DNA from: Candidatus Aminicenantes bacterium
GTDB taxonomy: Bacteria; Acidobacteriota; Aminicenantia; UBA2199
Assembly (NCBI GenBank): GCA_023137075.1
Contig: JAGLQA010000095.1
Location: 1 to 32,779 of the forward strand
Direction: 5' to 3'
DNA length: 32,779 bases
A program made the translations under genes and the position numbers. The notes under the pieces were generated by a model. It ran no database searches and had not been told where the DNA came from. It was given only the letters and a program-made list of their open reading frames with translations. Below, in pieces: positions 16,067-29,318 of this stretch. Within the stretch, counting starts at the first letter, position 1. Each line of letters opens with the position of its first letter.

Positions 16067-16085
16067 ATGGGCTGTGAGCTGAAAT

Positions 16086-16158
16086 GGTCCCTTAGCTCAA
16101 TTGGCAGAGCAATTGACTCTTAATCAATAGGTTGAAGGTTCGATTCCTTCAGGGATCA
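16086..16158 (+). tRNA. tRNA-Lys (anticodon CTT), 73 nt, no encoded CCA
   Basis: Hand-folded cloverleaf. Acceptor GGTCCCT/AGGGATC (one G-U pair), D stem GCTC/GAGC, anticodon stem ATTGA/TCAAT with loop CTCTTAA, variable loop AGGTT, T stem GAAGG/CCTTC with loop TTCGATT, discriminator A. A T8 run follows. Confidence 0.93.
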
Positions 16159-16319
16159 TTTTTTTTACCCAAAAACCATAATTCCCTGTAATCCCCCATA
16201 TCTTGAAATATCTTACCATCCATAATCTAATCGATTTTCACATAAAAATTTTATTTTCCTTGATTTTTTCCTTTTTTTATGTTACTTATCTTATAGAAGG
16301 AAATAGGAGGCCGAATAAA

Positions 16320-16532
16320 ATGGGTAGCTTCAAAAAGTGGTATCCAAAATTTGCTTTCTTGAATGGATTTGCAAGTTCGCTTGATATTTTTGGAATGAAT
16401 AGTATGAATTGGGAGGAATTGCAATCTATCATTTCTGTAAAAAGGAGAAATGAGGCAATTCATAAATATTTTAGGAATGCCTTAAAAGGAATTGATGAAG
16501 AAATCAAAAAAATTGAAGAAGTCAGAAGATAA
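16320..16532 (+). CDS. Hypothetical 70-aa protein
   Basis: The ATG at 16320 is preceded by AGGAGG (9 nt upstream). The upstream part of the track ORF (from 16203) is low-complexity and has no RBS. It overlaps the next gene by 41 nt. Confidence 0.45.
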   Translation: MGSFKKWYPKFAFLNGFASSLDIFGMNSMNWEELQSIISVKRRNEAIHKYFRNALKGIDEEIKKIEEVRR

Positions 16533-16965
16533 GAAAATTGAGAAAAGTACTACAGAAGACATTGATTTAGAAAAGGATGAATTTTCTCAAATTGGAATTG
16601 AAAGCGTAATTCAAAAAATCAATACTCCGTTTTTACCACCAAACTATTTAGAGAAGTATAATAAAGTTTATACTGGTTTCGCAAAAGAAATATGTGATTC
16701 AACTATTCTAACCATTCAGCATCAAATTGATAGTGAAAAAAAATTTATTGACAAGCAAAATAAAAAAACTCTTAGAGGGCAAGTTTTTGGTGTTCTTGTT
16801 GCTTTAACGAGTATCATTGCGGCGGTTATATGTGTTTTTAAAGGAGCCTTTACTGTCGCTGGAATTCTTGCAGGAGGTTCAGCTGTACCTCATATAATTA
16901 CTCAATTAATCAGTACAAAGAAGCCCGAAAAAAAAGAATCAAATAAGGAAGAAGAAAGTAAATAA
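16492..16965 (+). CDS. DUF2335-like membrane protein
   Basis: FLPPNYLEKYNKVYTGFAKEI...HQIDSEKK...RGQVFGVLVALTSIIAAVICVF...AGILAGG parallels the DUF2335 layout. That layout is LPPPE-L-x-Y, then a helical region, then RGQ-FG and two TM helices. Confidence 0.55.
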   Translation: MMKKSKKLKKSEDKKIEKSTTEDIDLEKDEFSQIGIESVIQKINTPFLPPNYLEKYNKVYTGFAKEICDSTILTIQHQIDSEKKFIDKQNKKTLRGQVFGVLVALTSIIAAVICVFKGAFTVAGILAGGSAVPHIITQLISTKKPEKKESNKEEESK

Positions 16966-17234
16966 AATAGCATTTGCTAACATTTTTAAAAGTGTGATTA
17001 CTTTTTGGACGCAATTAAAAAAATGATTGTAGTCGTTTCCGGGGGTAATAAAAAGGAGCGCTGTCCTGATTCGTTTTCTGACTTAAAAAAAAGGGCGTGC
17101 TCAAATGTTAAATTTTGTTAACTCGTTGGATTTCTGGTTATCCTCTTTTTTAGGGACTCTAAAAAAAGCACACCTAAGAAAGATGGTATTATTGATTTTT
17201 ATACGTGGGAATTGACACATCCCGGAAACCTCTT

Positions 17235-17855
17235 TTAAAATACTTTTTCTCTACGAAAAATAATCATAAACATATCTTTACCGCCAAACAAAGAGGTAGT
17301 ATCAGAATCTACGATCTTATCTAATAACCAACCCTCACTTGCATGTTGATTTAATATTTTTTCAAGAGTATCTGATTTCAAATTGCCTGTTAGAATAGAT
17401 TTTGCCTTTTGTTCTACTATCTTGTATTCATATATCTTCCTTCTTGTGTTTCTCTCATCTTTCTCTAATTCTATTTTACTCTCTCTTATTTCGATTTCTT
17501 TTTTCTTCTCATTTTTACTATCATAATTATCTAAATCAATATCTCTGTCTTGAAGGATTGCTTTTGTAATCTGTATGGTATCCTCAGACCGTTCATCCAG
17601 GTTATTATCTTTTACAATCAAAATTAGCTCTTCATTGCTTTTCTTTTCAAGCTTTTCTCTTTTCTGCTCAAATTCAATTTTGTTATTATAGCATTTATCA
17701 ATATCTACGTTCCTCTCACCAAGGATATTTTTTGCAATCTGTATGGCATCCTCAGACCATTCTTCAAGGTTATTATCTTTTACAATGATAGCTAAATCCT
17801 CATTACTTTTTTCCCCAAAGTTTTCTTTGATACTTTCTGATAGCTCACTACTCAT
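17235..17855 (-). CDS. Hypothetical protein with two N-terminal 39-aa repeats and a C-terminal DUF4177-like domain
   Basis: Start moved to MSSELSES (ATG at 17855, GAGGAGG upstream). The C-terminus YEYKIVEQKA...LEKILNQHASEGWLLDKIV...MFMIIFRREK resembles DUF4177. Confidence 0.6.
   Translation of the reverse strand: MSSELSESIKENFGEKSNEDLAIIVKDNNLEEWSEDAIQIAKNILGERNVDIDKCYNNKIEFEQKREKLEKKSNEELILIVKDNNLDERSEDTIQITKAILQDRDIDLDNYDSKNEKKKEIEIRESKIELEKDERNTRRKIYEYKIVEQKAKSILTGNLKSDTLEKILNQHASEGWLLDKIVDSDTTSLFGGKDMFMIIFRREKVF
17529..17813 (-). repeat. Intragenic tandem duplication (two 117-nt units, 168-nt period)
   Basis: aa 15-53 read EKSNEDLAIIVKDNNLEEWSEDAIQIAKNILGERNVDID. aa 71-109 read KKSNEELILIVKDNNLDERSEDTIQITKAILQDRDIDLD. 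The similarity is also visible at the DNA level. Confidence 0.9.
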
Positions 17856-17996
17856 GTTTCCTCCTCTTTTTTTACAATTATATAATCTCACATTTTAGCG
17901 ATTTTTTCAATCCTTCCAACAATGAATATGCTATTTTTTGTATAAATTGAGACATCCTATTTTTTTAAGACAGTCCGTTATTTAGTCGTGATTTCT

Positions 17997-18166
17997 GTTG
18001 TCAAATTTTGACATATGTTGACAAGTTTTGATTTTTTTAACATGTCACCGTTAAACTTTGATCGAATGTTGTCAAATTTTGATTACGTTTATCAACTTTT
18101 GATTGTAGTATATCAGATTGATGTCAGCCCATATCAAACTTGATTCCAGTGTATCAACCTTTGAAT
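17997..18166. repeat. Array of eight phased iteron-like inverted-repeat sites, consensus (G/A)TCAA-N1-3-TTGA(T/C)
   Basis: The sites are 17997-18012 GTTGTCAAATTTTGAC, 18017-18032 GTTGACAAGTTTTGAT, 18048-18063 CCGTTAAACTTTGATC and 18068-18083 GTTGTCAAATTTTGAT. They continue with 18087-18103 GTTTATCAACTTTTGAT, 18108-18122 GTATATCAGATTGAT, 18130-18144 CATATCAAACTTGAT and 18149-18166 GTGTATCAACCTTTGAAT. The 3' ends are spaced 20, 30, 21, 20, 19, 22 and 21 nt apart. Confidence 0.85.
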
Positions 18167-18194
18167 ACATTTTACTTTTCCGGGTAATAATGTT

Positions 18195-18271
18195 GTACGT
18201 TTTCCGTACTGTACGTTTTGTACTCAAAGTACCTTTTTATAACTCGATGTACTCCAGTAAAATTTTTGTAC
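18195..18271. repeat. GTAC-rich cluster including the direct repeat TGTACGTTTT x2
   Basis: GTAC occurs at 18195, 18206, 18211, 18220, 18229, 18249 and 18268. TGTACGTTTT occurs at 18194-18203 and 18210-18219. Confidence 0.8.
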
Positions 18272-18290
18272 TTTCGCAATCGACCAAACA

Positions 18291-18965
18291 TCAAAACCGG
18301 TTTGCCGCTGCTTTTAAATATTCCATCCTTTTTTTTATATAATCTTTGTCATGCGGTAAAAAATAAATCGAGCTTTCATTTATAGAATTTGCGTATTTTT
18401 CCATAACTATTTTTCGTTTCAATTTTTCATTTATCCATCTTGCTTCTTTCTGTATAAATTTTGCACCCATTCGATTTTGTATTTCTGTCTCATTATAACT
18501 TGTTGGTTCTCCATATTTTATTTTGAAAATGAAGAAAAGCTCCTCGAAGTGATTGGGAGTACAATTGATGAACACAGAATTAAGGAAAAGATTTTTTGAG
18601 TGATCTAATTTTAATCTTACCCGCCATTCTTTTTTGTATTTAGCTCTAAGCTGTTCAAGTCTTTCGGGAGTGTTCTTAAATAAAAAAACAATATCGACAT
18701 AAAAATCAAGGATTAAAAAATTATTTAATGTATATTTCCGCATAGCATACAATTCATCTAATTCCCTTGATGCTCCTTTCTTCCTTTCAGGATTTAAACC
18801 CGTTTTTTCATTAATATATGCTCTAAAACCTTTTAGTACCATGCCCCATTTGATTCCCATAAAACTACCCATTTGTTCCTTTTTTAAATCATCCGATATG
18901 TCTTCTGATAAACAAAGATTGACGCAAAAAAATAATACTACGATAAATAAAAAAAACTTTTTCAT
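18291..18965 (-). CDS. Hypothetical secreted protein (N-terminal signal peptide)
   Basis: MKKFFLFIVVLFFCVNLCLS is signal-like. RBS GGAGGA upstream of the ATG. No recognisable domain. Confidence 0.55.
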   Translation of the reverse strand: MKKFFLFIVVLFFCVNLCLSEDISDDLKKEQMGSFMGIKWGMVLKGFRAYINEKTGLNPERKKGASRELDELYAMRKYTLNNFLILDFYVDIVFLFKNTPERLEQLRAKYKKEWRVRLKLDHSKNLFLNSVFINCTPNHFEELFFIFKIKYGEPTSYNETEIQNRMGAKFIQKEARWINEKLKRKIVMEKYANSINESSIYFLPHDKDYIKKRMEYLKAAANRF

Positions 18966-19139
18966 TTTTCCTCCTTCAAATATTTCGTTAGCATATTTGA
19001 ATCAACATCTAAATTGTACTGGAAATTGGGAAATTGGGGACGGTGGGTGCGAGTGTGCGAATGTTGCTTTGCAATTTTTTAATCCTCATATTTTCTCTTT
19101 TTTATACATATTTCCCTTATTTGATTTCCCGGTCAGACC

Positions 19140-19262
19140 TTAACGACTCCAATTCTCGATCTTAAGATTCTCAACCCTCTTTATTCTTTTATTAATTTTA
19201 GGATATTTGTTTTTTAGCCAATAGATAACAATATCTGAGTCTAAAAGATAATTCTTATCCAT
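19140..19262 (-). pseudogene. vapC: vapC (PIN-domain toxin) remnant, only 40 codons
   Basis: Hand translation gives MDKNYLLDSDIVIYWLKNKYPKINKRIKRVENLKIENWSR*. The YLLDSDIVIYWLK block is the first PIN strand with the catalytic Asp, and the rest of the roughly 130-aa domain is absent. It starts 2 nt after the vapB-like stop. Confidence 0.6.
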
Positions 19263-19264
19263 TT

Positions 19265-19525
19265 TTAAAGGTAGATTTCATCAGAACGGATATTTTTTTC
19301 TCTATCTGACCTGATTTCAGCGATAATCTCATCAGCATCACGATCATCTTGCCATTTGCCGCAGAACCGGCTCAGACTGTGGGGCCGGGGTTCATCGGCA
19401 AAAATAATGATTCTCCTTTTAGTGCTTTTATTCGATCTGACTTTTATCTGTTTCGCTACATCAGGAGGTAATACAAGATGGCCATCCGGCAGTAATTCAG
19501 CTTCACAATTAATGGTTTTCAACAT
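19265..19525 (-). CDS. vapB: AbrB/SpoVT-type antitoxin (VapB-like)
   Basis: N-terminus ELLPDGHLVLPPDVAKQIKV is swapped-hairpin-like. C-terminus FCGKWQDDRDADEIIAEIRSDR is typical of VapB tails. RBS AGGAGG. Sits immediately upstream of the PIN remnant. Confidence 0.6.
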   Translation of the reverse strand: MLKTINCEAELLPDGHLVLPPDVAKQIKVRSNKSTKRRIIIFADEPRPHSLSRFCGKWQDDRDADEIIAEIRSDREKNIRSDEIYL

Positions 19526-19653
19526 AACCTCCTATTTTATGAGCATAATGAGTGCCTTTTCAGGTATCTCTAATACTCAGATATAATCTTATAACAAATC
19601 TTTTATTATTTCAATAAGAAAGTGGATATTGCTACTTTTTGAAGTGTACAACT

Positions 19654-20652: not shown

Positions 20653-20938
20653 GACTGGCTCCTAAATCACATTTTCGCATGTTTAATAAACCATTAATCC
20701 GAATGGTTTTGTCACTACCACCCATTATATCATGCATCCACCGATACGGCAATTTTTCCTGCCGGTTAGCAGCAATTCTAATTTTGGAGGTCCGGCGCTT
20801 TACTTTTAAGGGTGAATATGATAGAATTCGTCCTCTTTTCCTCCGAGTCAAAGGTGCTAACGCCTCAGGCTATGTCCTTTGACCGATAGGGCTGGACTGG
20901 AAACGATCCTGCCTGCCGTGTTTGCAAAGGAGGCTTAA

Positions 20939-22870
20939 ATGAATAATATAAAAGCAATTTACAAAAGAATTTCACTACTCGCTATCATCCTTTCCTTGAC
21001 CTGCTTTTGCCTGTGGGCAGAAAAAAAAGAAGATAAAAAAGAGCAGGGGAAAGAAGAATTGAAACCCGTCATCGAAGAAATCCAGGTTACCGGAAAAATC
21101 CCGGCCCAGCAGCCTATTTCTACCGTATCATTAATCGGTAAGAAAAAAATCGAAAAAGCAGTTCCTAAAACGCTCAACAATATCGTTAACCAGGCTTCCG
21201 GGGTCTACGTCACCGAGGGATCCAAAAACGAGGCCAGCGTGCAAATCAGGGGGCTGTCCAGCAACCGTATCGCCTTGATGTATGACGGTATCCCCATCTA
21301 TGAACCCTATTTCAACAGCTTTGATCTGAAAAGTTTTACAGCCGCGGGCATCGAGAATGTCAAGATTATTAAGGGCAGCAATTCGGTGCTTTACGGGCCA
21401 AACTCCTTAGGTGGGGTGATTAATATTCTCAGTGAACGGCCGAACCAGCCCTTTCTCTCCCTGAATGCCGACGCATCGGAAAATTCCACCTACTTCCTTT
21501 CCGGTTCCGGCGGCTATACCGTGGATAAGTTTGCTTTTTTCAGCAATATAACCTTAGATCAATCCGGCGGGTTCGATTATCACCGGGAGGGTGAGCGGGT
21601 TAAGCGGGACAACAGCGATTACCACCGCTTCAATATCTCCGGTAAGTTATATTTCTATCCCACGAAAAAAAGCGAATTTATGGCCCAGGTGTTGTACCAT
21701 ACGGCCGATTACGGTATCCCGGCGGCCACGGAATTTTCCAAAGCCCGCTACTGGCGTTTCGAAGACTGGAACCGCTGGCAGGTGAATGTAGGCGGTTTTT
21801 TTTCCTTCCTGCGCAAAGGACTTATCAAGGTACGCAGCTATTACGTGTACCACTATAACGTACTGGATGCTTATAATTCGGACGACTTTGCCGACTTGCA
21901 GTGGATTTCAACCTACAAGAATAATGCAATAGGCGCATTCATGTTAGGTGAATATCCCTTAGGCCGGAACCAGGAATTGAAATTCAGCTTGAATGTCAGC
22001 AGCATCAAGGTGCGGCAGCAGGGAGACACCGGCGAGGAGTGGGAAAGCTACGACCGGGAAATCTATTCCGCTGCCATCGAGGATCATATTACTATTTCCA
22101 GGACATGGAAAATCTCAGGTGGGGCCAGTATCGACTACTTAGTCAAGAATGACGATACCACCGAGACCCGGGTCAATCCCATCTTCGGGATCAAGTATAC
22201 GCCTCAAGATTGGCTGGATTTCCATCTCTCCTTTGCCCGGAAATCCCGGTTCCCCTCCATGAGGTCTCTCTACAGCACCAAATCGGGGAATCCGGAACTG
22301 ACGTCGGAAGTGGGGAACAATTTTGAAATCGGTTTTACTTATATGAAGCGTATAAGATTTGGTGGAGCCCTTTTCTACCATCGCATCTTCGATATGGTCC
22401 AGTCCTACCGCGGTTTAGACGGTTACCGCAACTATCAGAACATCGGCAGTGCCAACATCTACGGCCTGGAATTGGAGCTCGGCAAGCAGGTGGGAGTTTT
22501 TGATTTCAGTTTAAATTATACCTTTCTGAAAGCCGTGGACCAGGATGACGACCTGCCCTTAGATTATACTCCCGAATCCCAGTTCAGCGCTTTCGTAATT
22601 ATCGGTGAAATCAAGGGATTCTCGTTGACCCTGTGGGGCGCGGCAGTATCTTCTTCCCAGGCTAAAATGGGGAAGAATCCGCCCTTCGATATTGTAGAGA
22701 TCCCCGCCTATTCGTTGTTGAATGCCTGCTTAGAAAAGAGATTTGCCGGGATTATCCTGTACCTTAAGGCGGAGAATATTTTTGATAAAGCCTATTTTTC
22801 CGAACCGGGATTTCCCATGAAAGCCGGGATGTTCAGCCTCGGCTGCCGCCTCGACATCGGAAAAAAATAA
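20939..22870 (+). CDS. TonB-dependent outer-membrane receptor
   Basis: Signal peptide. Plug-domain blocks (VQIRGLSSNRIALMYDGIPIYEP, KGSNSVLYGPNSLGGVINI). Long beta-barrel region. RBS AGGAGG. Confidence 0.88.
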   Translation: MNNIKAIYKRISLLAIILSLTCFCLWAEKKEDKKEQGKEELKPVIEEIQVTGKIPAQQPISTVSLIGKKKIEKAVPKTLNNIVNQASGVYVTEGSKNEASVQIRGLSSNRIALMYDGIPIYEPYFNSFDLKSFTAAGIENVKIIKGSNSVLYGPNSLGGVINILSERPNQPFLSLNADASENSTYFLSGSGGYTVDKFAFFSNITLDQSGGFDYHREGERVKRDNSDYHRFNISGKLYFYPTKKSEFMAQVLYHTADYGIPAATEFSKARYWRFEDWNRWQVNVGGFFSFLRKGLIKVRSYYVYHYNVLDAYNSDDFADLQWISTYKNNAIGAFMLGEYPLGRNQELKFSLNVSSIKVRQQGDTGEEWESYDREIYSAAIEDHITISRTWKISGGASIDYLVKNDDTTETRVNPIFGIKYTPQDWLDFHLSFARKSRFPSMRSLYSTKSGNPELTSEVGNNFEIGFTYMKRIRFGGALFYHRIFDMVQSYRGLDGYRNYQNIGSANIYGLELELGKQVGVFDFSLNYTFLKAVDQDDDLPLDYTPESQFSAFVIIGEIKGFSLTLWGAAVSSSQAKMGKNPPFDIVEIPAYSLLNACLEKRFAGIILYLKAENIFDKAYFSEPGFPMKAGMFSLGCRLDIGKK

Positions 22871-22939
22871 CATACGTAAATATTAGAGTGCCTGGAATGA
22901 AAAAAGATTTCCTTTGACAGAAGATTTTTTTATGAACGG

Positions 22940-22968
22940 TTGATTTTTTTAGTAAATACTGCTATCTT
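22940..22968 (+). promoter_or_regulatory. Putative promoter of the UPF0175/PIN-like/611-aa gene set
   Basis: TTGATT (22940-22945), 17-nt spacer, TATCTT (22963-22968), about 17 nt before the ATG at 22985. Confidence 0.3.
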
Positions 22969-22984
22969 AATACCGGAGAAAAAA

Positions 22985-23233
22985 ATGGTAATAACAATAC
23001 CTGAAAAAGTCGAAGAAGCGTTAAGAATTCCGGTTAAAGGAAGAGAAAGAGAACTAAAAAAACTCCTGGCCCTGAAACTATACGAGAAGGGAATTCTCGG
23101 TATGGGAAAAGCAAGAGAATTGATTGGTGTGGGTAGGTCGGATTTTTTCTATATTCTGAAAGAAGAGGGAATTTCTATAAACTTCGATAAAGAGGAGTTG
23201 GAAGAAGATTTAAAGACAATAGAGGGTATGTGA
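22985..23233 (+). CDS. UPF0175-family antitoxin
   Basis: LALKLYEKGILGMGKARELIGVGRSDFFYILKEEGISINFDKEELEEDL is the UPF0175 pattern. Start moved to the ATG at 22985 (GGAG upstream). Confidence 0.75.
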   Translation: MVITIPEKVEEALRIPVKGRERELKKLLALKLYEKGILGMGKARELIGVGRSDFFYILKEEGISINFDKEELEEDLKTIEGM

Positions 23234-23703
23234 AATTGAGTGCCGTATGTGACACCTCTGTTTTGATAGCGCTGGAATCTGTGGAAAAAATTCATCTTTT
23301 GCACGAAATTTTTTCCCACATCCTTATCCCGGAAGAAGTTTTCAATGAATTAGAAATCGAGCAAAGAGGGTTTAAATTAGAACAATGGATTATAGTAAAA
23401 AAAATCACCAATATCGATTTATGCAGCAGCTTATATTTAAACCTTGACTTAGGAGAAAGCGAAGCCATTACCCTGGCTCTTGAAAAGAAGACGGATTTTA
23501 TTTTGTTAGATGATAAAGAAGCAAGGAAAGCGGCAAGAAATTTAGGATTAAAAATAATAGGCACTGTGGGCATGCTTCTCCTTGCGAAAGAAAAGGGATT
23601 ATTATCTGGCTCCGTGATGGATGAAATTCAAAAGATGGAAAATAGAATAAATTTTCGTCTTTCTTCCGACTTAAAAAAGATTATAGAAAATTCAGGTGAG
23701 TAA
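23230..23703 (+). CDS. DUF3368 / COG2405 PIN-like toxin
   Basis: N-terminus VCDTSVLIAL. C-terminus LDLGESEAITLALEKKTDFILLDDKEARKAARNLGLKIIGTVGMLLLAKEKGLL is the DUF3368 signature. The GTG start overlaps the upstream stop (ATGTGA). Confidence 0.75.
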   Translation: MKLSAVCDTSVLIALESVEKIHLLHEIFSHILIPEEVFNELEIEQRGFKLEQWIIVKKITNIDLCSSLYLNLDLGESEAITLALEKKTDFILLDDKEARKAARNLGLKIIGTVGMLLLAKEKGLLSGSVMDEIQKMENRINFRLSSDLKKIIENSGE

Positions 23704-23741
23704 AAATAAATATAAAAAAATACGTTTATTAGGGAAAGACC

Positions 23742-25577
23742 GTGCCGTTTAAGAAAAAGATAAATAAAGAGAAGAAAGAAGAAACCAAAGAGAAAGAAGC
23801 GGTTACGAAAGAATTTAAGCCCAAATACAATAAGCCGAAAATTCTATTAATCGATTTACCTGAGAAGGCCCTTCAAAATGTTCGGTCTGCCGGATTTAAC
23901 ACTCATTCGGGTACGTTTGGTTCACCCTATAAAGTAGAACTAAGCAGCGGATACAAACCTTTAATTGCTGAACCTTCTCTGCCAAACTTTACTGAACAAG
24001 AAATCATCATAATCGACCTTAAACCACCTGAAACACTCAACGAACCGGAAGGGAAAAAAGATGTTCCCCTTGGAGTAGAAAATTGGTGGGTAAAATGCGA
24101 TATTGGTGTGATTGATCCAAGACCAAAATTTATGTTATATGTTCAAAAGCATTTCGACCGTATTTTGGAACATGGTGGATTATTTGTCATTTTTGCTAAA
24201 TCACGTTTAAATCAAGACATAGTATGGGGCAAAAGTGAATATGGTAGACTATCGGTTAACAAAAAACTGAAATACGATAACTGGTCATTTCTTTCGATTC
24301 TTAATCCAGAAAACATTAAGGTCAAAGAAGATTTTGGCGAAGAGATTAGCTTACCAGATTATAGTAATGATCATCCACTTTTTCAGTTTCTTAAACAGGA
24401 AATAAAAAATTGTGAATATGATGCCATTTTTAGGTCATTCCGAGAATCAGATTTCATGTGGCTTCCTATTTTAGAAAGCAAATACGGAGATGATGTTGCC
24501 GGAGTAATTATTCCGAAAGATTCAGAAGGTAATCACCTGAAGGAACGCATTATAATTTTGCCTCAAACAGAAAATAAATCTGAGGTAATACCCACTTTAT
24601 TGAAGGAGGTTCTTCCTGAAATATCTCCCCATCTTTTCCCTCATGTAGAAGGGGCTCGATGGGTGGAAAGAGATGAGTATGAACTTGAGTCAGTGCTCAA
24701 TCTTAAAGGACAAAAAGTAGAAGCACGGAAAAGAGTAGAAAAAGAGATCAAAGAGCTCGACATTAAAATAGCCGAAGAAAGGGGGAAGTTTGGATTTCTC
24801 CATAGGATTATTACCGGATGGAGTGATGAGCTTGTCAGGGATGTTAAAACCTGTCTTGAATTTATCGGATTCGAGCAAGTTCGAGATGTCGATGAGGAAA
24901 TCAAAAATAAAGCTAAAAAAGTGCCAAAACAAGAAGACCTTCAAATTCTTGATGATTCTCCTGCATTATTAATCGAAATAAAGGGATTATCAGGTCTCCC
25001 AAAAGAGATAGAAACTAATCAAGTTGAAAAATATATATCCAGGAGAATGAAAGAGTGGGATAGAACCGATATTCGTGGAGTATCGATAATAAACCATCTG
25101 CGTAACGTTCACGGACTTGAAAGAGAGAATGAAAATGTATTCTCCAAACAGCAGAAAGAAGACGCAGAAGATCGTGATATTACCATTTTAACTACCTGGG
25201 ATTTATTCCTACTAATTAGAGGGATGATCAAATGGAAATGGAACCCGAAAGCCATCCGAGAACTCTTTTATCAAAAAGGCAGAATGCCCAGGGTACCCGC
25301 ACATTATAAACCTATCGGAAGTATAACACATTACTGGGAAAAGCTGGGAGTAATTGAAATAAAAATTTCAAATGATAATATCAATAAAGGTCAACGCATT
25401 GGATATTTCATCAATAGCGTTTATTTAGAGGAAGAGATTCAATCCATGCAGGTTGATCAGCAGGGTGTTGAAGTGGCAACGCAAGGGCAATCGGTTACGA
25501 TTAAAACGAGATACAGTAAAAAAGAATTACCTAAGAAAGCAACCGTATACAAAGTTTTAAATGATTCTGGCTCATAA
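23742..25577 (+). CDS. Orphan 611-aa multidomain protein. Domains are a K/E-rich tail, an unknown alpha/beta-like N-domain, a coiled coil, a PD-(D/E)xK nuclease-like core and an EF-Tu-domain-2-like beta-barrel.
   Basis: Long uninterrupted ORF with a GTG start (GGGAAAG upstream), 38 nt after the PIN-like gene. Nuclease-like motif QED399LQI...LLIE412IK414G. The C-terminus PIGSITHYWEKLGVIEIKISNDNINKGQRIGYFINSVYLEEEIQSMQVDQQGVEVATQGQSVTIKT...TVYKV matches the small translation-elongation-factor-like barrel proteins. Confidence 0.7.
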   Translation: MPFKKKINKEKKEETKEKEAVTKEFKPKYNKPKILLIDLPEKALQNVRSAGFNTHSGTFGSPYKVELSSGYKPLIAEPSLPNFTEQEIIIIDLKPPETLNEPEGKKDVPLGVENWWVKCDIGVIDPRPKFMLYVQKHFDRILEHGGLFVIFAKSRLNQDIVWGKSEYGRLSVNKKLKYDNWSFLSILNPENIKVKEDFGEEISLPDYSNDHPLFQFLKQEIKNCEYDAIFRSFRESDFMWLPILESKYGDDVAGVIIPKDSEGNHLKERIIILPQTENKSEVIPTLLKEVLPEISPHLFPHVEGARWVERDEYELESVLNLKGQKVEARKRVEKEIKELDIKIAEERGKFGFLHRIITGWSDELVRDVKTCLEFIGFEQVRDVDEEIKNKAKKVPKQEDLQILDDSPALLIEIKGLSGLPKEIETNQVEKYISRRMKEWDRTDIRGVSIINHLRNVHGLERENENVFSKQQKEDAEDRDITILTTWDLFLLIRGMIKWKWNPKAIRELFYQKGRMPRVPAHYKPIGSITHYWEKLGVIEIKISNDNINKGQRIGYFINSVYLEEEIQSMQVDQQGVEVATQGQSVTIKTRYSKKELPKKATVYKVLNDSGS

Positions 25578-25622
25578 GTCATAATATTCTGGGTAAATTT
25601 TCTTTAACAGCAGTTATTGAAA

Positions 25623-25850
25623 GTGATGAGTAGTGGGGTTTCATCACGCTTCGCATGACTATTTACCTTCGGTGAGCCCACCACGTGGACAGGGGACGAG
25701 GCCGGGGCTAAACTAAAAAAAATATCGAGTGACGAATAGCGGACACCAAATGTTGTAGGGATATTCAATAATTCCTTATTGCTTGGGTATCCCTTATCGG
25801 TTCCCCGCGCTGCGGGGTTGAAAAAGTTTGATCAAAACTTTTATTTTTCC
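25623..25850 (+). other. Hairpin-rich non-coding segment (possible structured RNA or decayed sequence)
   Basis: GTGATGA/TCATCAC (25623-25647). Palindrome CCACGTGG (25681-25688). AGGGATA/TATCCCT (25757-25794). CCCCGC-gct-GCGGGG (25803-25817). AAAAGTTT/AAACTTTT followed by ATTTTT (25822-25848). No ORF. Confidence 0.3.
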
Positions 25851-25903
25851 TTCATTTTAAGTGTGACGCTACATTTGCGATGTGGGAATTTATCTTTAGG
25901 CAC

Positions 25904-25931
25904 TTGACCCGGGACGTCAACATGGTACAAT
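25904..25931 (+). promoter_or_regulatory. Putative promoter of the methyltransferase gene
   Basis: TTGACC (25904-25909), 16-nt spacer, TACAAT (25926-25931). The ATG at 25944 lies only 12 nt past the -10 element and has no SD. Confidence 0.45.
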
Positions 25932-25943
25932 GATGCCGGTACC

Positions 25944-26708
25944 ATGAGCCCTTTCAACCAGGAAAAAATTCTTTATCAAAAAAAGAGCCGCTATAACGAT
26001 ATCACCGTAACACAAAAAGGGTCCTATGTCACCCTGTACAGCCCGGAAGATATCATCCAGTCGGAAATAAATATCAAACAACCGCTAAAACCCCACCTCG
26101 AATTTAACCGTTACCTGCTCTTCAGCCTCGTTTTTTGCCCGAAACCTTCCGCCATACTGGTTTTGGGTCTCGGCGGCGGCGTGGTGCCTCGGGTATTGAG
26201 TGCGATTTGCCCGGAAGCAATTGTGGATGTGGTGGAAATCGACGCGGAAATGTTAAAGGCAGCGGAGAACTATTTCGGTTTTACCACGTCTTCCCGGCTA
26301 CGCGTGCACCTTGAAGACGCCCGCGCCTTTATTCGCCGCACCCGGAAGGAATACGACCTGATCATCGTAGATACCTACTGTGGCCTCAACCTGCCCCAAT
26401 CCATCGATAATCCCTCATTTTTCAAGGATTGCGGCAACCTGTTGTCAGAAGGGGGCATCCTATCGGTTAACCTGATTCCTTTCGACAAACTTTTCATGGA
26501 GAAACGGTTGGACTGGATCAAACAGGCTCTCACCAATATCTGCCTGATGCGCGGCGTCACCCGGCTCAATGAAGTGGTTTATGCGGGAAGAAGGCCGGTG
26601 GAGAAATCGAACCTTTTACAAAACGCGACTTTTTTAAAAAAAAGACTCCCATCTAATTTAAAAACCAGGCAATTGTGCAAACACTTAGAATGCCGTAGTG
26701 GCGGGTAA
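25944..26708 (+). CDS. Spermidine-synthase-like SAM-dependent methyltransferase-fold protein
   Basis: ILVLGLGGGVVPRVL (SAM motif I), VDVVEIDAEMLKAAENYFGF and YDLIIVD are arranged as in spermine/spermidine synthase family proteins. Confidence 0.7.
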   Translation: MSPFNQEKILYQKKSRYNDITVTQKGSYVTLYSPEDIIQSEINIKQPLKPHLEFNRYLLFSLVFCPKPSAILVLGLGGGVVPRVLSAICPEAIVDVVEIDAEMLKAAENYFGFTTSSRLRVHLEDARAFIRRTRKEYDLIIVDTYCGLNLPQSIDNPSFFKDCGNLLSEGGILSVNLIPFDKLFMEKRLDWIKQALTNICLMRGVTRLNEVVYAGRRPVEKSNLLQNATFLKKRLPSNLKTRQLCKHLECRSGG

Positions 26709-26921: not shown

Positions 26922-29318
26922 TTATCGCTGCAGCTCGAGAAGCATCTCCTCGAAGGGTACCGGGTAGGCTGTCAACCAGACCACCGGTTGAAGCTTCGTT
27001 TTCTTTTTCTTATAAGCCATCACATAGACTTCGATATTCTTTCCGATCATATCTTTTGTGACCGGCGCGTAATATGTATAATTTTTATCACGCCGGACTG
27101 TTACATATTCCCAGGTATTGGCAGGATAAGATGGCGCCCGGTCCGGGCAGCCGACCGGTTTGCCGGCGACTTTCAACGCGGCATAGGCGCTTTCGATACC
27201 GTGTTCGCCCTCTAAGGCGATACATATATAACTACCTTTAACCCACTCGTCGATATAGAACCGGGCCTGCCAGGCTTTTACCGGTGTCATCCTCCGCGGA
27301 TGAGCGAACAAATTGGATGCCCGCCACTTTTTCGGGGAAAGTAATTTGCCGTTGAAAAACCCTTCGATCTCCGTAATGCGATCCGGAAAAGCCCGGAAAC
27401 GCAGGTAGCGCACCGGCCCGGGCAATTCGATGACCATACGTTTACCGGCCAGGTAGGTCAGCCGCTTCCAGGATTTCAGGTCGGTGGACACCTCCACATG
27501 ATTCCCCTCATCTTTGAGCAGCGGATGCAGGGAATATTCATCGGGCACATGCAGGACGATGCGTTCTACATCCAGCACCTCACCAAAATCAAGCCGGAGG
27601 CAGCCGTTCTTCACTCGCCGGTCAATCAGGTATTTCCGGGACGGCCAGAAACCGGTGCGCATGTCGCCGTCGAAGAGGTTGCGGTCCCGGACTCCCCGGT
27701 TCACAAAGGTGGGCTGGTTGAAGAAGGCGTCTCGCGCTGCCTGGACGCTGGGAATCCGCGTCGGCCCCGAACGAAATAGGCTGCGTACTTCCAGGGCATT
27801 ATTGTCGGCGGCAAAAACCGTGGCTTCGTACAATGCTTCGGCATCCTCCGGCACCTTACATTCGCTCATATCGGCCGGTTTCCTATGCCAGTGGTTTTTT
27901 AATTTTTCCCCGGGAAATGTTATTTCCAGGGATTTTCCCTTTAATAATTCGCCCACATTCTCCCCGGAAAGGTATGCCTGGGAAAAAAACCTGCCCTCTG
28001 CCCTGAGCTTAATCGAGCTTTTCTGACCGGGGTAACCCAATAATTCGATTTTGAGGAGATCACCCGGTGTATCGCGAATCACCCGGTAGTCGCAGCCCTC
28101 GATACCGGCTTCCTCGCAGGGCTCGACCGAGGCTAAAAGCAAACAGGCCCGGAAGGGCATTACCGTAACCGGCACTTTTGTCCCCGGCGCGAATCTGCCG
28201 ATGATTTTTTCGGTTGGATGAAATTGCCGCAATTCGATAGGGCGGTTCACGAAGAGGCCGATTTTTTTACCCAGGTTGATTTTATACTGCACCGGCTGCC
28301 AGGTCAGGTTTCGCAGGGTAATCAACCGGGTTTTTTCACTGCCCCGGGATACGGCATAGGGGCCGTAGTGCCGCTTCGGCAGCGGCATGCCTTTGACCAG
28401 GATATCTCGATAACGGCGGTGCAGGTTGTAAATCCGGGCCAGTTTGGGAAATTCCTCATCCCGAAGCAGCCAGGGATTGCCGTAAATCTGGGGGGCCAGG
28501 ATGAGGCAGCGGTTAAAGGCCTGCAGTATAAGATCATCCTCCCAAAAGTCTAAGCAGGAAGAGAGGCACACACCATGATCTTCGGTGAGTCGTTTCAACC
28601 CCGGCACCAAACCGCGGGAAATGGCGTCGGCCCGGTGGTGAGGAGCGGTAACGGTGTTGCTGGAGAAGACATCGATGTAGGTTTCTTTTCCCTCCCAGAG
28701 GAAGGTAGTGGCATAAGCCCGGGCTCGCTCCAGCCCGAGGCGGTGGTTGAGCAGGATCAAATCCGGGCTGTACTTGCGGCATAGAGTCATCATGCGGATG
28801 AAAGCATCTTCTTTTTCCGGTCGCAGTGGGCCGCACACGGCATCGAATTTAAACAGGGCGAAGTCAAAATCCCGGCACAGGCTCACCATCTGGGCAATGC
28901 GCGCTTGCTCTTCTTCCGGCGTATCGCCGAAGCCATCCGGCCCTCCCCAGATACCGAGCCGCGTCCCCATGCACCCGGCCTCCCGGTAAACCGGGGTGAA
29001 ATCATCAGGAAATTGTTCGCGGAAACGCTGCGAATCCCTTCGGCCGTAGAACCGTTTGCCGTCGATGGCGCCGGCGTCAAAGGCGTAAATATCCAGCACC
29101 ATTCCGTACTCAGTGTGCAGCCATTTGAAGAATTCCAGGTTGATCAGGGCCTGTTTTTCGGTGGCGCCTTCGTTGGTGTTGTTGATCCAGGAAAAATATT
29201 GCGATCGGGAGGGCGTGTTTTCGTCAGCGCCGGGAAAAACAGGCGGCTTCTCCCCATCAACAAAGCCTGGTATCGCGAATAAAAACATAAAAATAGTAAT
29301 TAAAAAAAAAATTTTCAT
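26922..29318 (-). CDS. Secreted 798-aa protein, possible glycoside-hydrolase-like TIM barrel with a C-terminal discoidin (F5/8 type C)-like domain
   Basis: Signal peptide MKIFFLITIFMFLFAIPGFVDG. An N-terminal region with alternating beta/alpha character and FKFDAV. LRLDFGEVLDVERIVLHV...VEVSTDLKSWKRL looks discoidin-like. The family was not recognised with certainty. Confidence 0.45.
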   Translation of the reverse strand: MKIFFLITIFMFLFAIPGFVDGEKPPVFPGADENTPSRSQYFSWINNTNEGATEKQALINLEFFKWLHTEYGMVLDIYAFDAGAIDGKRFYGRRDSQRFREQFPDDFTPVYREAGCMGTRLGIWGGPDGFGDTPEEEQARIAQMVSLCRDFDFALFKFDAVCGPLRPEKEDAFIRMMTLCRKYSPDLILLNHRLGLERARAYATTFLWEGKETYIDVFSSNTVTAPHHRADAISRGLVPGLKRLTEDHGVCLSSCLDFWEDDLILQAFNRCLILAPQIYGNPWLLRDEEFPKLARIYNLHRRYRDILVKGMPLPKRHYGPYAVSRGSEKTRLITLRNLTWQPVQYKINLGKKIGLFVNRPIELRQFHPTEKIIGRFAPGTKVPVTVMPFRACLLLASVEPCEEAGIEGCDYRVIRDTPGDLLKIELLGYPGQKSSIKLRAEGRFFSQAYLSGENVGELLKGKSLEITFPGEKLKNHWHRKPADMSECKVPEDAEALYEATVFAADNNALEVRSLFRSGPTRIPSVQAARDAFFNQPTFVNRGVRDRNLFDGDMRTGFWPSRKYLIDRRVKNGCLRLDFGEVLDVERIVLHVPDEYSLHPLLKDEGNHVEVSTDLKSWKRLTYLAGKRMVIELPGPVRYLRFRAFPDRITEIEGFFNGKLLSPKKWRASNLFAHPRRMTPVKAWQARFYIDEWVKGSYICIALEGEHGIESAYAALKVAGKPVGCPDRAPSYPANTWEYVTVRRDKNYTYYAPVTKDMIGKNIEVYVMAYKKKKTKLQPVVWLTAYPVPFEEMLLELQR

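Follow-up and report, generated by a model that had tools for sequence, protein, structure and literature searches.

The contig JAGLQA010000095.1 of a Candidatus Aminicenantes bacterium (32,779 nt, analyzed over its full length and referred to here as the window) carries a small AT-rich islet of three co-directional open reading frames (ORFs) on the forward strand. An earlier note on this DNA had described three genes wedged between a receptor gene and a methyltransferase gene, and ORF calling together with Pfam matches bears this out: the islet is flanked on its 5' side by a TonB-dependent receptor gene (Plug plus beta-barrel; 20939–22870) and on its 3' side by a spermidine-synthase-like methyltransferase gene (25944–26708). 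The first two islet genes encode a toxin–antitoxin (TA) pair, and the third, designated here gene X, encodes a 611-aa predicted PD-(D/E)xK nuclease of an unannotated family. The earlier note proposed that the three genes form a composite defense locus. The comparisons described below indicate instead that the three genes are not conserved together as a "system", and that the TA pair and X are probably two independent modules, with X as a single-gene nuclease candidate that has a putative role in defense.

The UPF0175-family antitoxin gene (82 aa; forward strand, 22985–23233) most likely starts at the ATG at 22985, which a GGAGA Shine-Dalgarno sequence at 22975–22979 precedes by 6 nt. Its reading frame is open from the TTG at 22940, which is the first in-frame TTG and the start position given previously, and ends with the TGA at 23231–23233. 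The DUF3368/PIN-like toxin gene (157 aa; forward strand, 23230–23703) follows. The 4-nt overlap reported between these two genes and the string ATGTGA are both present, but the toxin starts at the GTG at 23230, and the overlap itself is GTGA. An AT-rich spacer of 38 nt (23704–23741) with a AGGGAAAG ribosome-binding-like site separates the toxin gene from X (forward strand, 23742–25577). The start of X is the GTG at 23742, the sole start codon upstream of the conserved N-terminus. In comparison, the recorded automatic call of this gene (P0001, 481 aa) begins at Met131 and drops 130 conserved N-terminal residues (23742–24131), including the family-wide motifs KPKILLIDL, GTFGSPY, and IIIIDL; the call is corrected here as being about 130 residues too short. 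The islet is closed by an intergenic region of 366 nt (25578–25943). The first 130 nt of this region show no significant structure upon folding, and the methyltransferase gene has its own promoter-like site (TTGACC-16-TACAAT with TG) at 25904–25931.

The identity of the TA pair, as proposed in the earlier note, is supported by Pfam matches above the cut-offs. The antitoxin matches PF03683 (UPF0175) over the full-length model (positions 1–75; E value 2.7e-21; score 75.5 bits, cut-off 27.9), and the toxin matches PF11848 (DUF3368) with 30.5 bits, above the cut-off of 27.3. Both proteins also match the PADLOC PDC-S70 models (toxin, E value 4.6e-39; antitoxin, E value 5.7e-6), and PADLOC called this pair only, in line with the expectation that at most the TA genes would be called. 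In an alignment of 22 toxin homologs, the conserved residues are D8, E40, G75-E76, E78, D94, R99, and G111-T112-x-G114, and these include the conserved PIN-type acidic residues D8, E40, E76/E78, and D94. The layout is that of a type II module, with small, adjacent, co-directional, and overlapping genes of which the antitoxin gene comes first. Two of the closest toxin relatives (69 and 63% identity; L123 and L124, on contigs of 348 and 137 kb) are likewise UPF0175–DUF3368 pairs with the same layout. One of these pairs sits among glycosidase genes and the other adjoins a HEPN/MNT pair and NACHT genes; an X-like neighbor is absent at both of these closest relatives examined. PDC-S70 was defined from a two-family cassette and has candidate phage-defense status only, and the PDC systems are candidates nominated for their embedding in BREX, DISARM, or type I restriction-modification (R-M) systems (Payne et al., 2024, bioRxiv 10.1101/2024.01.29.577857). 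The islet pair agrees with the PDC-S70 cassette in its families, its model matches, its small overlapping antitoxin-first genes, and its PIN-type acidic residues. The only departure is the presence of X 38 nt downstream, and elsewhere X lies outside the cassette. Judging from its sequence, the TA pair is a conventional and already known type II cassette that is self-contained and encodes a putative PIN-like RNase toxin.

For X, sequence and profile searches against Pfam, NCBIfam, PADLOC, PHROGs, and PDB gave no significant match. Its domains were delimited from alignments and AlphaFold2 models, for which the mean predicted local distance difference test (pLDDT) value is 85.4 at full length and 87.8 for residues 25–520; this segment was re-modeled because the C-terminal barrel swamped the full-length Foldseek search. 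The N-terminal domain (approximately residues 30–290; 23829–24611) has a flavodoxin-like alpha/beta core with a beta-rich extension in alignments and Foldseek searches, and contains the conserved motifs KPKILLIDL, GFN..GTFGSPY, EQEIIIIDL, IDPRP, and GGLFVIFA. This domain weakly resembles the class I glutamine-amidotransferase-like structure 3fij (E value 0.025, TMt 0.44) and PhzE. A conserved Cys nucleophile at the "FA" elbow appears to be absent in the alignments; given this and the weak fold match, the domain is not assigned here to either of the two functions considered, active glutamine amidotransferase and receiver domain. The N-terminal domain is followed by a long connecting helix of 43 residues (316–358; 24687–24815), as assigned by DSSP on the models, which is possibly a coiled coil or an oligomerization element.

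The nuclease domain (approximately residues 362–510; 24825–25271) was recognized in Foldseek searches of PDB and BFVD. The top PDB match is the small subunit of R.BspD6I (2p14; E value 0.015, TMt 0.49), and further PDB matches are EcoO109I, Nt.BspD6I, Hjc, HincII, Hef, and bunyaviral cap-snatching endonucleases. The BFVD matches (viral proteins; E values from 1.5e-3) are annotated as restriction endonuclease, Mrr, endonuclease I, and Holliday junction resolvase. Taken together, the structural neighbors span E values from 1.5e-3 to 0.4, and the model matches to a restriction-endonuclease-like core fold are consistent but weak. The catalytic core E398-D399...E412-x-K414-G415, followed by a helix with Q427..K430-Y431..R435 (24933–24983), carries the D...(D/E)-x-K motif of the PD-(D/E)xK superfamily. 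Among 257 full-length members (30–61% identity), D399, E/D412, and G415 are conserved in 100%, E398 in 99.6%, and K414 in 98.8%; other conserved residues include D384 and R461 (both 100%), N451 (99%), and K430 (97%). The description of the 611-aa protein as nuclease-like in the earlier note is therefore supported by both the conserved motif and the matching fold hits, and, given the motif conservation together with the predicted fold, active PD-(D/E)xK nuclease function is very probable for X.

The C-terminal domain (approximately residues 520–606; 25299–25559) is a beta-barrel resembling EF-Tu domain 2 and the C-terminal domain of U32 peptidases. With the full-length model, Foldseek matched this barrel to EF-Tu, IF2, eIF5B, and aIF2-gamma (E values 1e-5 to 7e-8), and to the U32 peptidase C-terminal domain 4he5 with TMt 0.86 and a root-mean-square deviation of 1.6. 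Assignment of the barrel to EF-Tu domain 2 by sequence was rejected, as Pfam PF03144 was matched at sub-threshold level only (E values 0.002–0.006) and in some members. As a separate observation, two downstream neighbors of X homologs match the Pfam model GTP_EFTU_D2 with an E value of 2.3e-8 and are not apparent translation GTPases. These two proteins differ from the frameshifted X fragments of L111 and L115, with which an identity had been suspected.

The X family is large and has a patchy distribution. Its 284 close homologs (about 592 aa) are every one labeled as hypothetical. A profile search of 1.84 billion cluster representatives gave 3022 matches, of which 687 have E values of 1e-30 or lower, and the best 150 of the matches listed are mostly full length; at this threshold the family comprises at least 687 clusters at 50% identity. 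In data with one genome per species, X is found in only 25 species and is strictly single-copy and sporadic, with a range that covers archaea and about 12 bacterial phyla. The taxa include Methanophagales/ANME-1, Methanothrix, Caldisericum, Ignavibacteriota, cyanobacteria, Acidobacteriota, Bacteroidota, Planctomycetota, Verrucomicrobiota, Myxococcota, Actinomycetota, and Proteobacteria. The TonB-dependent receptor of the window points to a host related to Aminicenantes/Acidobacteriota. In the family tree, the copy of X from the window is nested within a largely archaeal clade. Some family members are located on plasmids and flanked by insertion sequence (IS) elements, and a small number of plasmids from cultured Klebsiella, Serratia, Pantoea, and Synechocystis PCC 6714 (pSYLB, WP_028946592.1) carry distant colinear homologs (25% identity, E value 2e-27, motif retained). 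In addition, one homolog with 37% identity is found on an 11.5-kb contig classed as viral (L125, IMG/VR UViG_3300004463_001041), and another with 25% identity on the unannotated 7.5-kb "Bacteriophage sp." record MT837188.1; viruses or virus-like elements thus occasionally carry members of the family. The patchy distribution, the nesting of the window's copy within a largely archaeal clade, and the low G+C content of the islet (see below) all fit horizontal transfer.

X homologs lie among genes for defense and TA systems, as the earlier note had anticipated and as both neighbor censuses and individual loci indicate. When flanking proteins were clustered without reference to annotation, the sole recurrent neighbors were HsdS-like (11 loci), HsdR-like (10 loci), and Fic (five loci) proteins. 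In Pfam and PADLOC censuses of approximately 300 nearest neighbors, type I restriction endonuclease, methyltransferase, and specificity subunits rank first, followed by SoFic, several PDC candidates, capH, AbiEi, type III methyltransferase, Eco57I-like enzymes, integrases, Nmad3, and 5-hmdU kinase. Based on locally built hidden Markov models, hsd genes were detected at 14 of the 76 X loci with usable flanks (18%), all co-directional with X and distributed over at least six clades of the family tree. Two layouts account for most of these loci. In the M-S-X-R layout (L021, L073, and L024, and in partial form L074, L078, and L098), X lies 79–212 nt after hsdS and, in L021 and L073, only 2–7 nt from hsdR. 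In the M-S-R-X layout (L004, L056, L057, L060, and L061), X follows hsdR after 64–68 nt, with a looser spacing of about 800 nt in L093 and L108. The remaining locus, L027, belongs to neither layout; its single hsd gene is an hsdR located about 500 nt downstream. Type I R-M genes are generally expected to make up well under 1% of genes. Given that 18% of the X loci have such genes, and in operonic register, the association between X and type I R-M systems is strong, and embedding in these systems is a property of X at the level of the family.

Other X loci have more varied contexts. The neighbors of X are Mrr, PLD, and helicase genes in L001, Fic, HTH, RadC, and type III R-M-like genes in L002, and RelB-like and HicAB genes in L007. 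In L120 (6001–9733), X overlaps by 8 nt with a 650-aa gene that encodes a lamin-tail domain (LTD) and two PLD domains (DrmC-like). In L122 (502–7779), the genes before X encode an MmeI-like type IIG R-M protein and an OLD/AriA/GajA-like ATPase-TOPRIM protein, and the gap is 54 nt. These two arrangements may represent alternative multi-gene contexts for the family. On the conjugative F-type plasmid NZ_CP024642.1 of Klebsiella michiganensis (L127, 3459–8683), a distant X homolog (WP_161505307.1, 563 aa, nuclease motif kept) is located 257 nt downstream of pifC-pifA (PifA identity, E value 2e-261), and a gene of the Abi family is found another 3 kb along. The identification of X as PifB was considered and rejected. 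PifA is found on 1016 plasmids, and the X-like gene is full length on only seven plasmids and absent from 5,426 E. coli genomes; because PifA is thus widespread on plasmids and X-like genes are very few, with none in E. coli, the case is one of adjacency to pif genes rather than of pifB identity.

By comparison, the TA pair is not a recurrent neighbor of X. Among 115 X loci fetched, 94 are non-redundant, and all their six-frame ORFs were searched with the antitoxin and the toxin of the window. A UPF0175/DUF3368 pair was found at one of these 94 loci (L028), approximately 5 kb upstream of X and on the opposite strand; L066 gave a weak PIN match only, and none of seven further X loci has such a pair. 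A recurrent placement of homologs of the 611-aa protein next to UPF0175/DUF3368 pairs is thus not supported, the recurrent partner being type I R-M. Taken together with the lack of X at the two closest toxin relatives, these counts speak against the composite three-gene system that had been proposed, and the arrangement in the window is not conserved from either side. X and the TA pair are probably not functionally linked. Moreover, X often stands last behind upstream genes of heterogeneous nature, with a co-directional gene no more than 100 nt before it in 31 of 78 loci, so the short gap between the toxin gene and X is not specific evidence of partnership.

Transcription signals in the islet permit several arrangements. 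The 38-nt gap between the toxin stop and the X start was reported to be without a terminator, and this agrees with the sequence and with a terminator scan, which found no terminator-like site on the forward strand over 22600–26100. The spacer region folds no better than its shuffles (z = 0.09) and appears to be unstructured. Upstream of the antitoxin gene, the promoter-like element noted earlier (TTGATT-17-TATCTT; 22940–22968, forward strand) is plausible but weak, with 8 of 12 positions matching the consensus, under the threshold of the scan. The claim that it is the only such element in the islet did not hold, as the scan gave other matches on the forward strand, e.g., a 9/12 match at 23621–23648, approximately 95 nt upstream of the X start. 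Promoter-like sites in general are near the shuffle level and not clearly above it (14 found versus 8.6 ± 2.8). The 38-nt gap without a terminator permits co-transcription of the three genes, and the internal promoter-like site also stands within the sequence. Because the single-promoter claim fails and the promoter matches are not clearly above those of shuffles, co-transcription is plausible from the sequence, and separate transcription is also possible.

The low G+C content of the islet was confirmed, with values of 0.33–0.39 over 22800–25600 compared to 0.47–0.52 in the flanks. Similarly low stretches are present elsewhere in the window, e.g., at 16–19 kb. A 20-nt inverted repeat with 85% identity (22779–22798 and 25963–25982) was examined as the possible termini of the islet and rejected, since its arms lie inside the flanking coding sequences and the match is no better than about 12 chance pairs. 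It was the only candidate found in the search for flanking repeats or att sites around the islet. There is no tRNA gene at the islet, and the tRNA-Lys gene is 7 kb away.

These observations are best explained by a small and probably horizontally acquired islet in which two independent mobile modules, the TA pair and X, became adjacent by chance, and in which X is a single-gene nuclease candidate with a putative role in defense. We assign this explanation a probability of about 0.62. Under it, the PD-(D/E)xK domain (D399, E412, and K414) would cut nucleic acid with Mg2+, and the substrate would most likely be invading DNA, with X acting as a restriction-type or type IV-like, possibly modification-dependent, endonuclease. 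The flavodoxin/GATase1-like N-terminal domain and the EF-Tu-domain-2-like barrel may supply recognition of a target or signal as well as control, and the long helix may mediate oligomerization. X would then be an accessory gene of defense loci, above all of type I R-M operons, that complements or backs up the R-M enzyme. In the window, which lacks an R-M system, X could be read through from the TA promoter or transcribed from a weak promoter of its own.

Several observations weigh against this explanation. The fold matches of the nuclease and N-terminal domains are weak (best E values 1.5e-3 to 1.5e-2), and X matches no Pfam nuclease model. The X of the window is not linked to R-M, with no hsd genes in the 32.8 kb, and 62 of the 76 X loci are without hsd genes in the fetched flanks. 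L121 has no defense-related neighbor, and some X contexts look like ordinary metabolism. The R-M enrichment was judged against a general expectation of gene frequency rather than a matched control of random genes. X begins just 38 nt after the toxin gene without an intervening terminator, so that a link to the TA pair, whether functional or regulatory, is possible in this genome. Finally, synteny is not conserved at relatives of the TonB-dependent receptor (62–65% identity), such that neither an insertion nor its boundaries are demonstrable.

Alternatively, X may not be an immune gene, but a nuclease for a mobile-element or DNA-metabolism role, such as recombination, repair, homing, or plasmid maintenance, that gathers in variable islands together with R-M and TA genes. 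The X contexts without defense genes, the members on IS-flanked plasmids, on one viral contig, and in one phage record, the integrases among the neighbors, and the Holliday junction resolvases among the fold matches are all compatible with such a role. Nonetheless, this alternative is unlikely, as the co-directional placement of X between hsdS and hsdR, with gaps of 2–7 nt and in several clades, is hard to explain by island hitch-hiking alone. Furthermore, X has no transposase, integrase, or replication domain in Pfam searches, and its strictly single-copy and sporadic distribution is like that of defense genes.

Another alternative is that the three genes do form one unit in this genome, with X co-transcribed with and controlled by the UPF0175/PIN module. 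Loss of the labile antitoxin, e.g., upon a phage-induced shut-off, would derepress an autoregulated TA promoter, and X would be made as a second effector. The 38-nt gap with its unstructured spacer and no terminator, the low G+C content common to all three genes, the frequent position of X as the distal gene of operons, and the fact that both modules are of kinds found embedded in defense systems are in favor of this possibility. We regard it as rather improbable, given that the arrangement is not conserved in either direction, with a TA pair at one of 94 X loci and there non-adjacent and on the opposite strand, and no X at the two closest toxin relatives examined. The variety of unrelated genes behind which X is found, and the 9/12 promoter-like match upstream of X, also argue against it.

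X might also be a latent RNA (tRNA) nuclease that guards R-M systems in the manner of PrrC, being silenced by the type I R-M complex or another partner and triggered when a phage inhibits restriction. RNA cleavage by the PD-(D/E)xK domain would bring about abortive infection, with the barrel binding the acceptor end of aminoacyl-tRNA or a translation factor. The gene order of the prr locus is hsdM-hsdS-prrC-hsdR, which is the M-S-X-R order found in L021, L024, and L073. PrrC reportedly occurs almost only within type I R-M systems, and silencing of PrrC by the type I R-M enzyme linked to it has been reported (PMC2610378). The resemblance of the X barrel to EF-Tu domain 2 and the presence of RNA-cutting PD-(D/E)xK enzymes (the cap-snatching endonucleases) among the fold matches point in the same direction. 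However, most fold matches are DNA endonucleases, the barrel fold is generic and also found in the U32 peptidase C-terminal domain, X has neither an ABC-ATPase/NTPase domain nor a PADLOC PrrC match, and 62 of the 76 loci, including that of the window, have no R-M partner in the fetched flanks. A PrrC-like guard function thus seems quite doubtful. Finally, it is highly improbable that X represents a new and widespread companion effector class for R-M, i.e., a latent PD-(D/E)xK nuclease whose barrel and pseudo-amidotransferase N-terminal domain would sense a phage-induced state (e.g., inhibition of the partner system or a translation/tRNA cue) and that plugs into type I R-M in many genomes or, in the window, into the UPF0175/PIN module as a real TA-wired variant.

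Returning to X as an independent nuclease candidate, its relationship to known systems is one of partial likeness. Within type I R-M operons, members of the X family take up places, either between hsdS and hsdR or directly behind hsdR, that TgvAB/BrxU (GmrSD-like type IV) and PrrC/RloC also occupy. X differs from these in lacking the DUF262/DUF1524 domains of GmrSD, an ABC-ATPase, and the PrrC nuclease domain, and has no PADLOC match at an E value of 1 or lower; it is a single PD-(D/E)xK protein of other architecture, and the copy in the window is not beside R-M genes. For PrrC/RloC in particular, the operon position alone is shared, with no P-loop or ABC match in Pfam and none to PrrC in PADLOC. 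Shedu (SduA, DUF4263) is a single-protein defense nuclease with variable N-terminal sensor domains and a C-terminal PD-(D/E)xK nuclease. X is broadly similar in pairing a putative sensing or inhibitory N-terminal domain with a PD-(D/E)xK nuclease in a stand-alone, horizontally mobile gene, but differs by its extra C-terminal barrel and by the internal rather than terminal position of the nuclease domain; no match to DUF4263/Shedu was found in Pfam (E value of 0.1 or lower) or PADLOC (E value of 1 or lower). The best structural neighbors of X are the restriction-type PD-(D/E)xK enzymes, i.e., Mrr/type IV and the type II enzymes R.BspD6I, EcoO109I, and HincII, together with archaeal Hjc. With these X shares the D...(D/E)xK motif on a beta-hairpin, followed by a helix with conserved Q/K/Y, and the likeness is at the level of the fold only (E values of 1e-3 or higher, 10–18% identity). 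These enzymes are without the 260-residue N-terminal domain, the 43-residue helix, and the EF-Tu-D2-like barrel of X. A parallel is provided by TgvAB, a restriction-like nuclease that is embedded in an R-M operon (PMC11411939). Embedding of the kind seen in the X family was also what pointed to TgvAB and to the HEC/PDC systems of Payne et al.

Several other features of the window are worth recording. A molybdenum/tungsten cofactor (Moco) riboswitch (RF01055) is located at 20829–20948 on the forward strand, directly upstream of the TonB-dependent receptor gene, with 69.5 bits against a gathering score of 36. This position suggests that the outer-membrane receptor (20939–22870) is Moco-regulated, and the receptor may import a molybdate- or tungstate-related substrate. 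A tRNA-Lys(CTT) gene at 16085–16159 is followed by approximately 3.5 kb of very low G+C content (0.30–0.33), extending to about 19600. The ORFs in this stretch, mostly without annotation, include two of 157 and 224 aa without a Pfam match and one of 218 aa with DUF4177. The stretch (16085–19600) is possibly a further islet that inserted at the tRNA gene. In a stretch of high G+C content (0.53–0.60) adjacent to the islet, an ORF of 798 aa on the reverse strand (26922–29318) has a signal-peptide-like N-terminus and no Pfam match at an E value of 1e-4 or lower.

With regard to significance, the TA pair of the islet is already known, and the novelty lies in the architecture of X, previously undescribed, which combines a GATase1-like N-terminal domain, a PD-(D/E)xK nuclease domain, and an EF-Tu-D2-like barrel. 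X represents a large and well-conserved family, present in both archaea and bacteria, that is not covered by any model in Pfam, NCBIfam, or PADLOC and lacks a relative of solved structure. The strict conservation of its motif and its repeated embedding in type I R-M operons form a signature that recently yielded validated defense systems ("guilt-by-embedding"). This approach already lists hundreds of candidates of such kind, and X was probably missed by these screens through its rarity in cultured RefSeq genomes. The size of the family, its spread across archaea and bacteria, the strict motif, and the stereotyped R-M embedding make X a good target for experiments. Its recurrent membership in type I R-M operons elsewhere makes X a candidate new anti-phage gene; if this is true, the family would be a new single-gene nuclease defense and a further case of R-M systems cooperating with embedded effectors.

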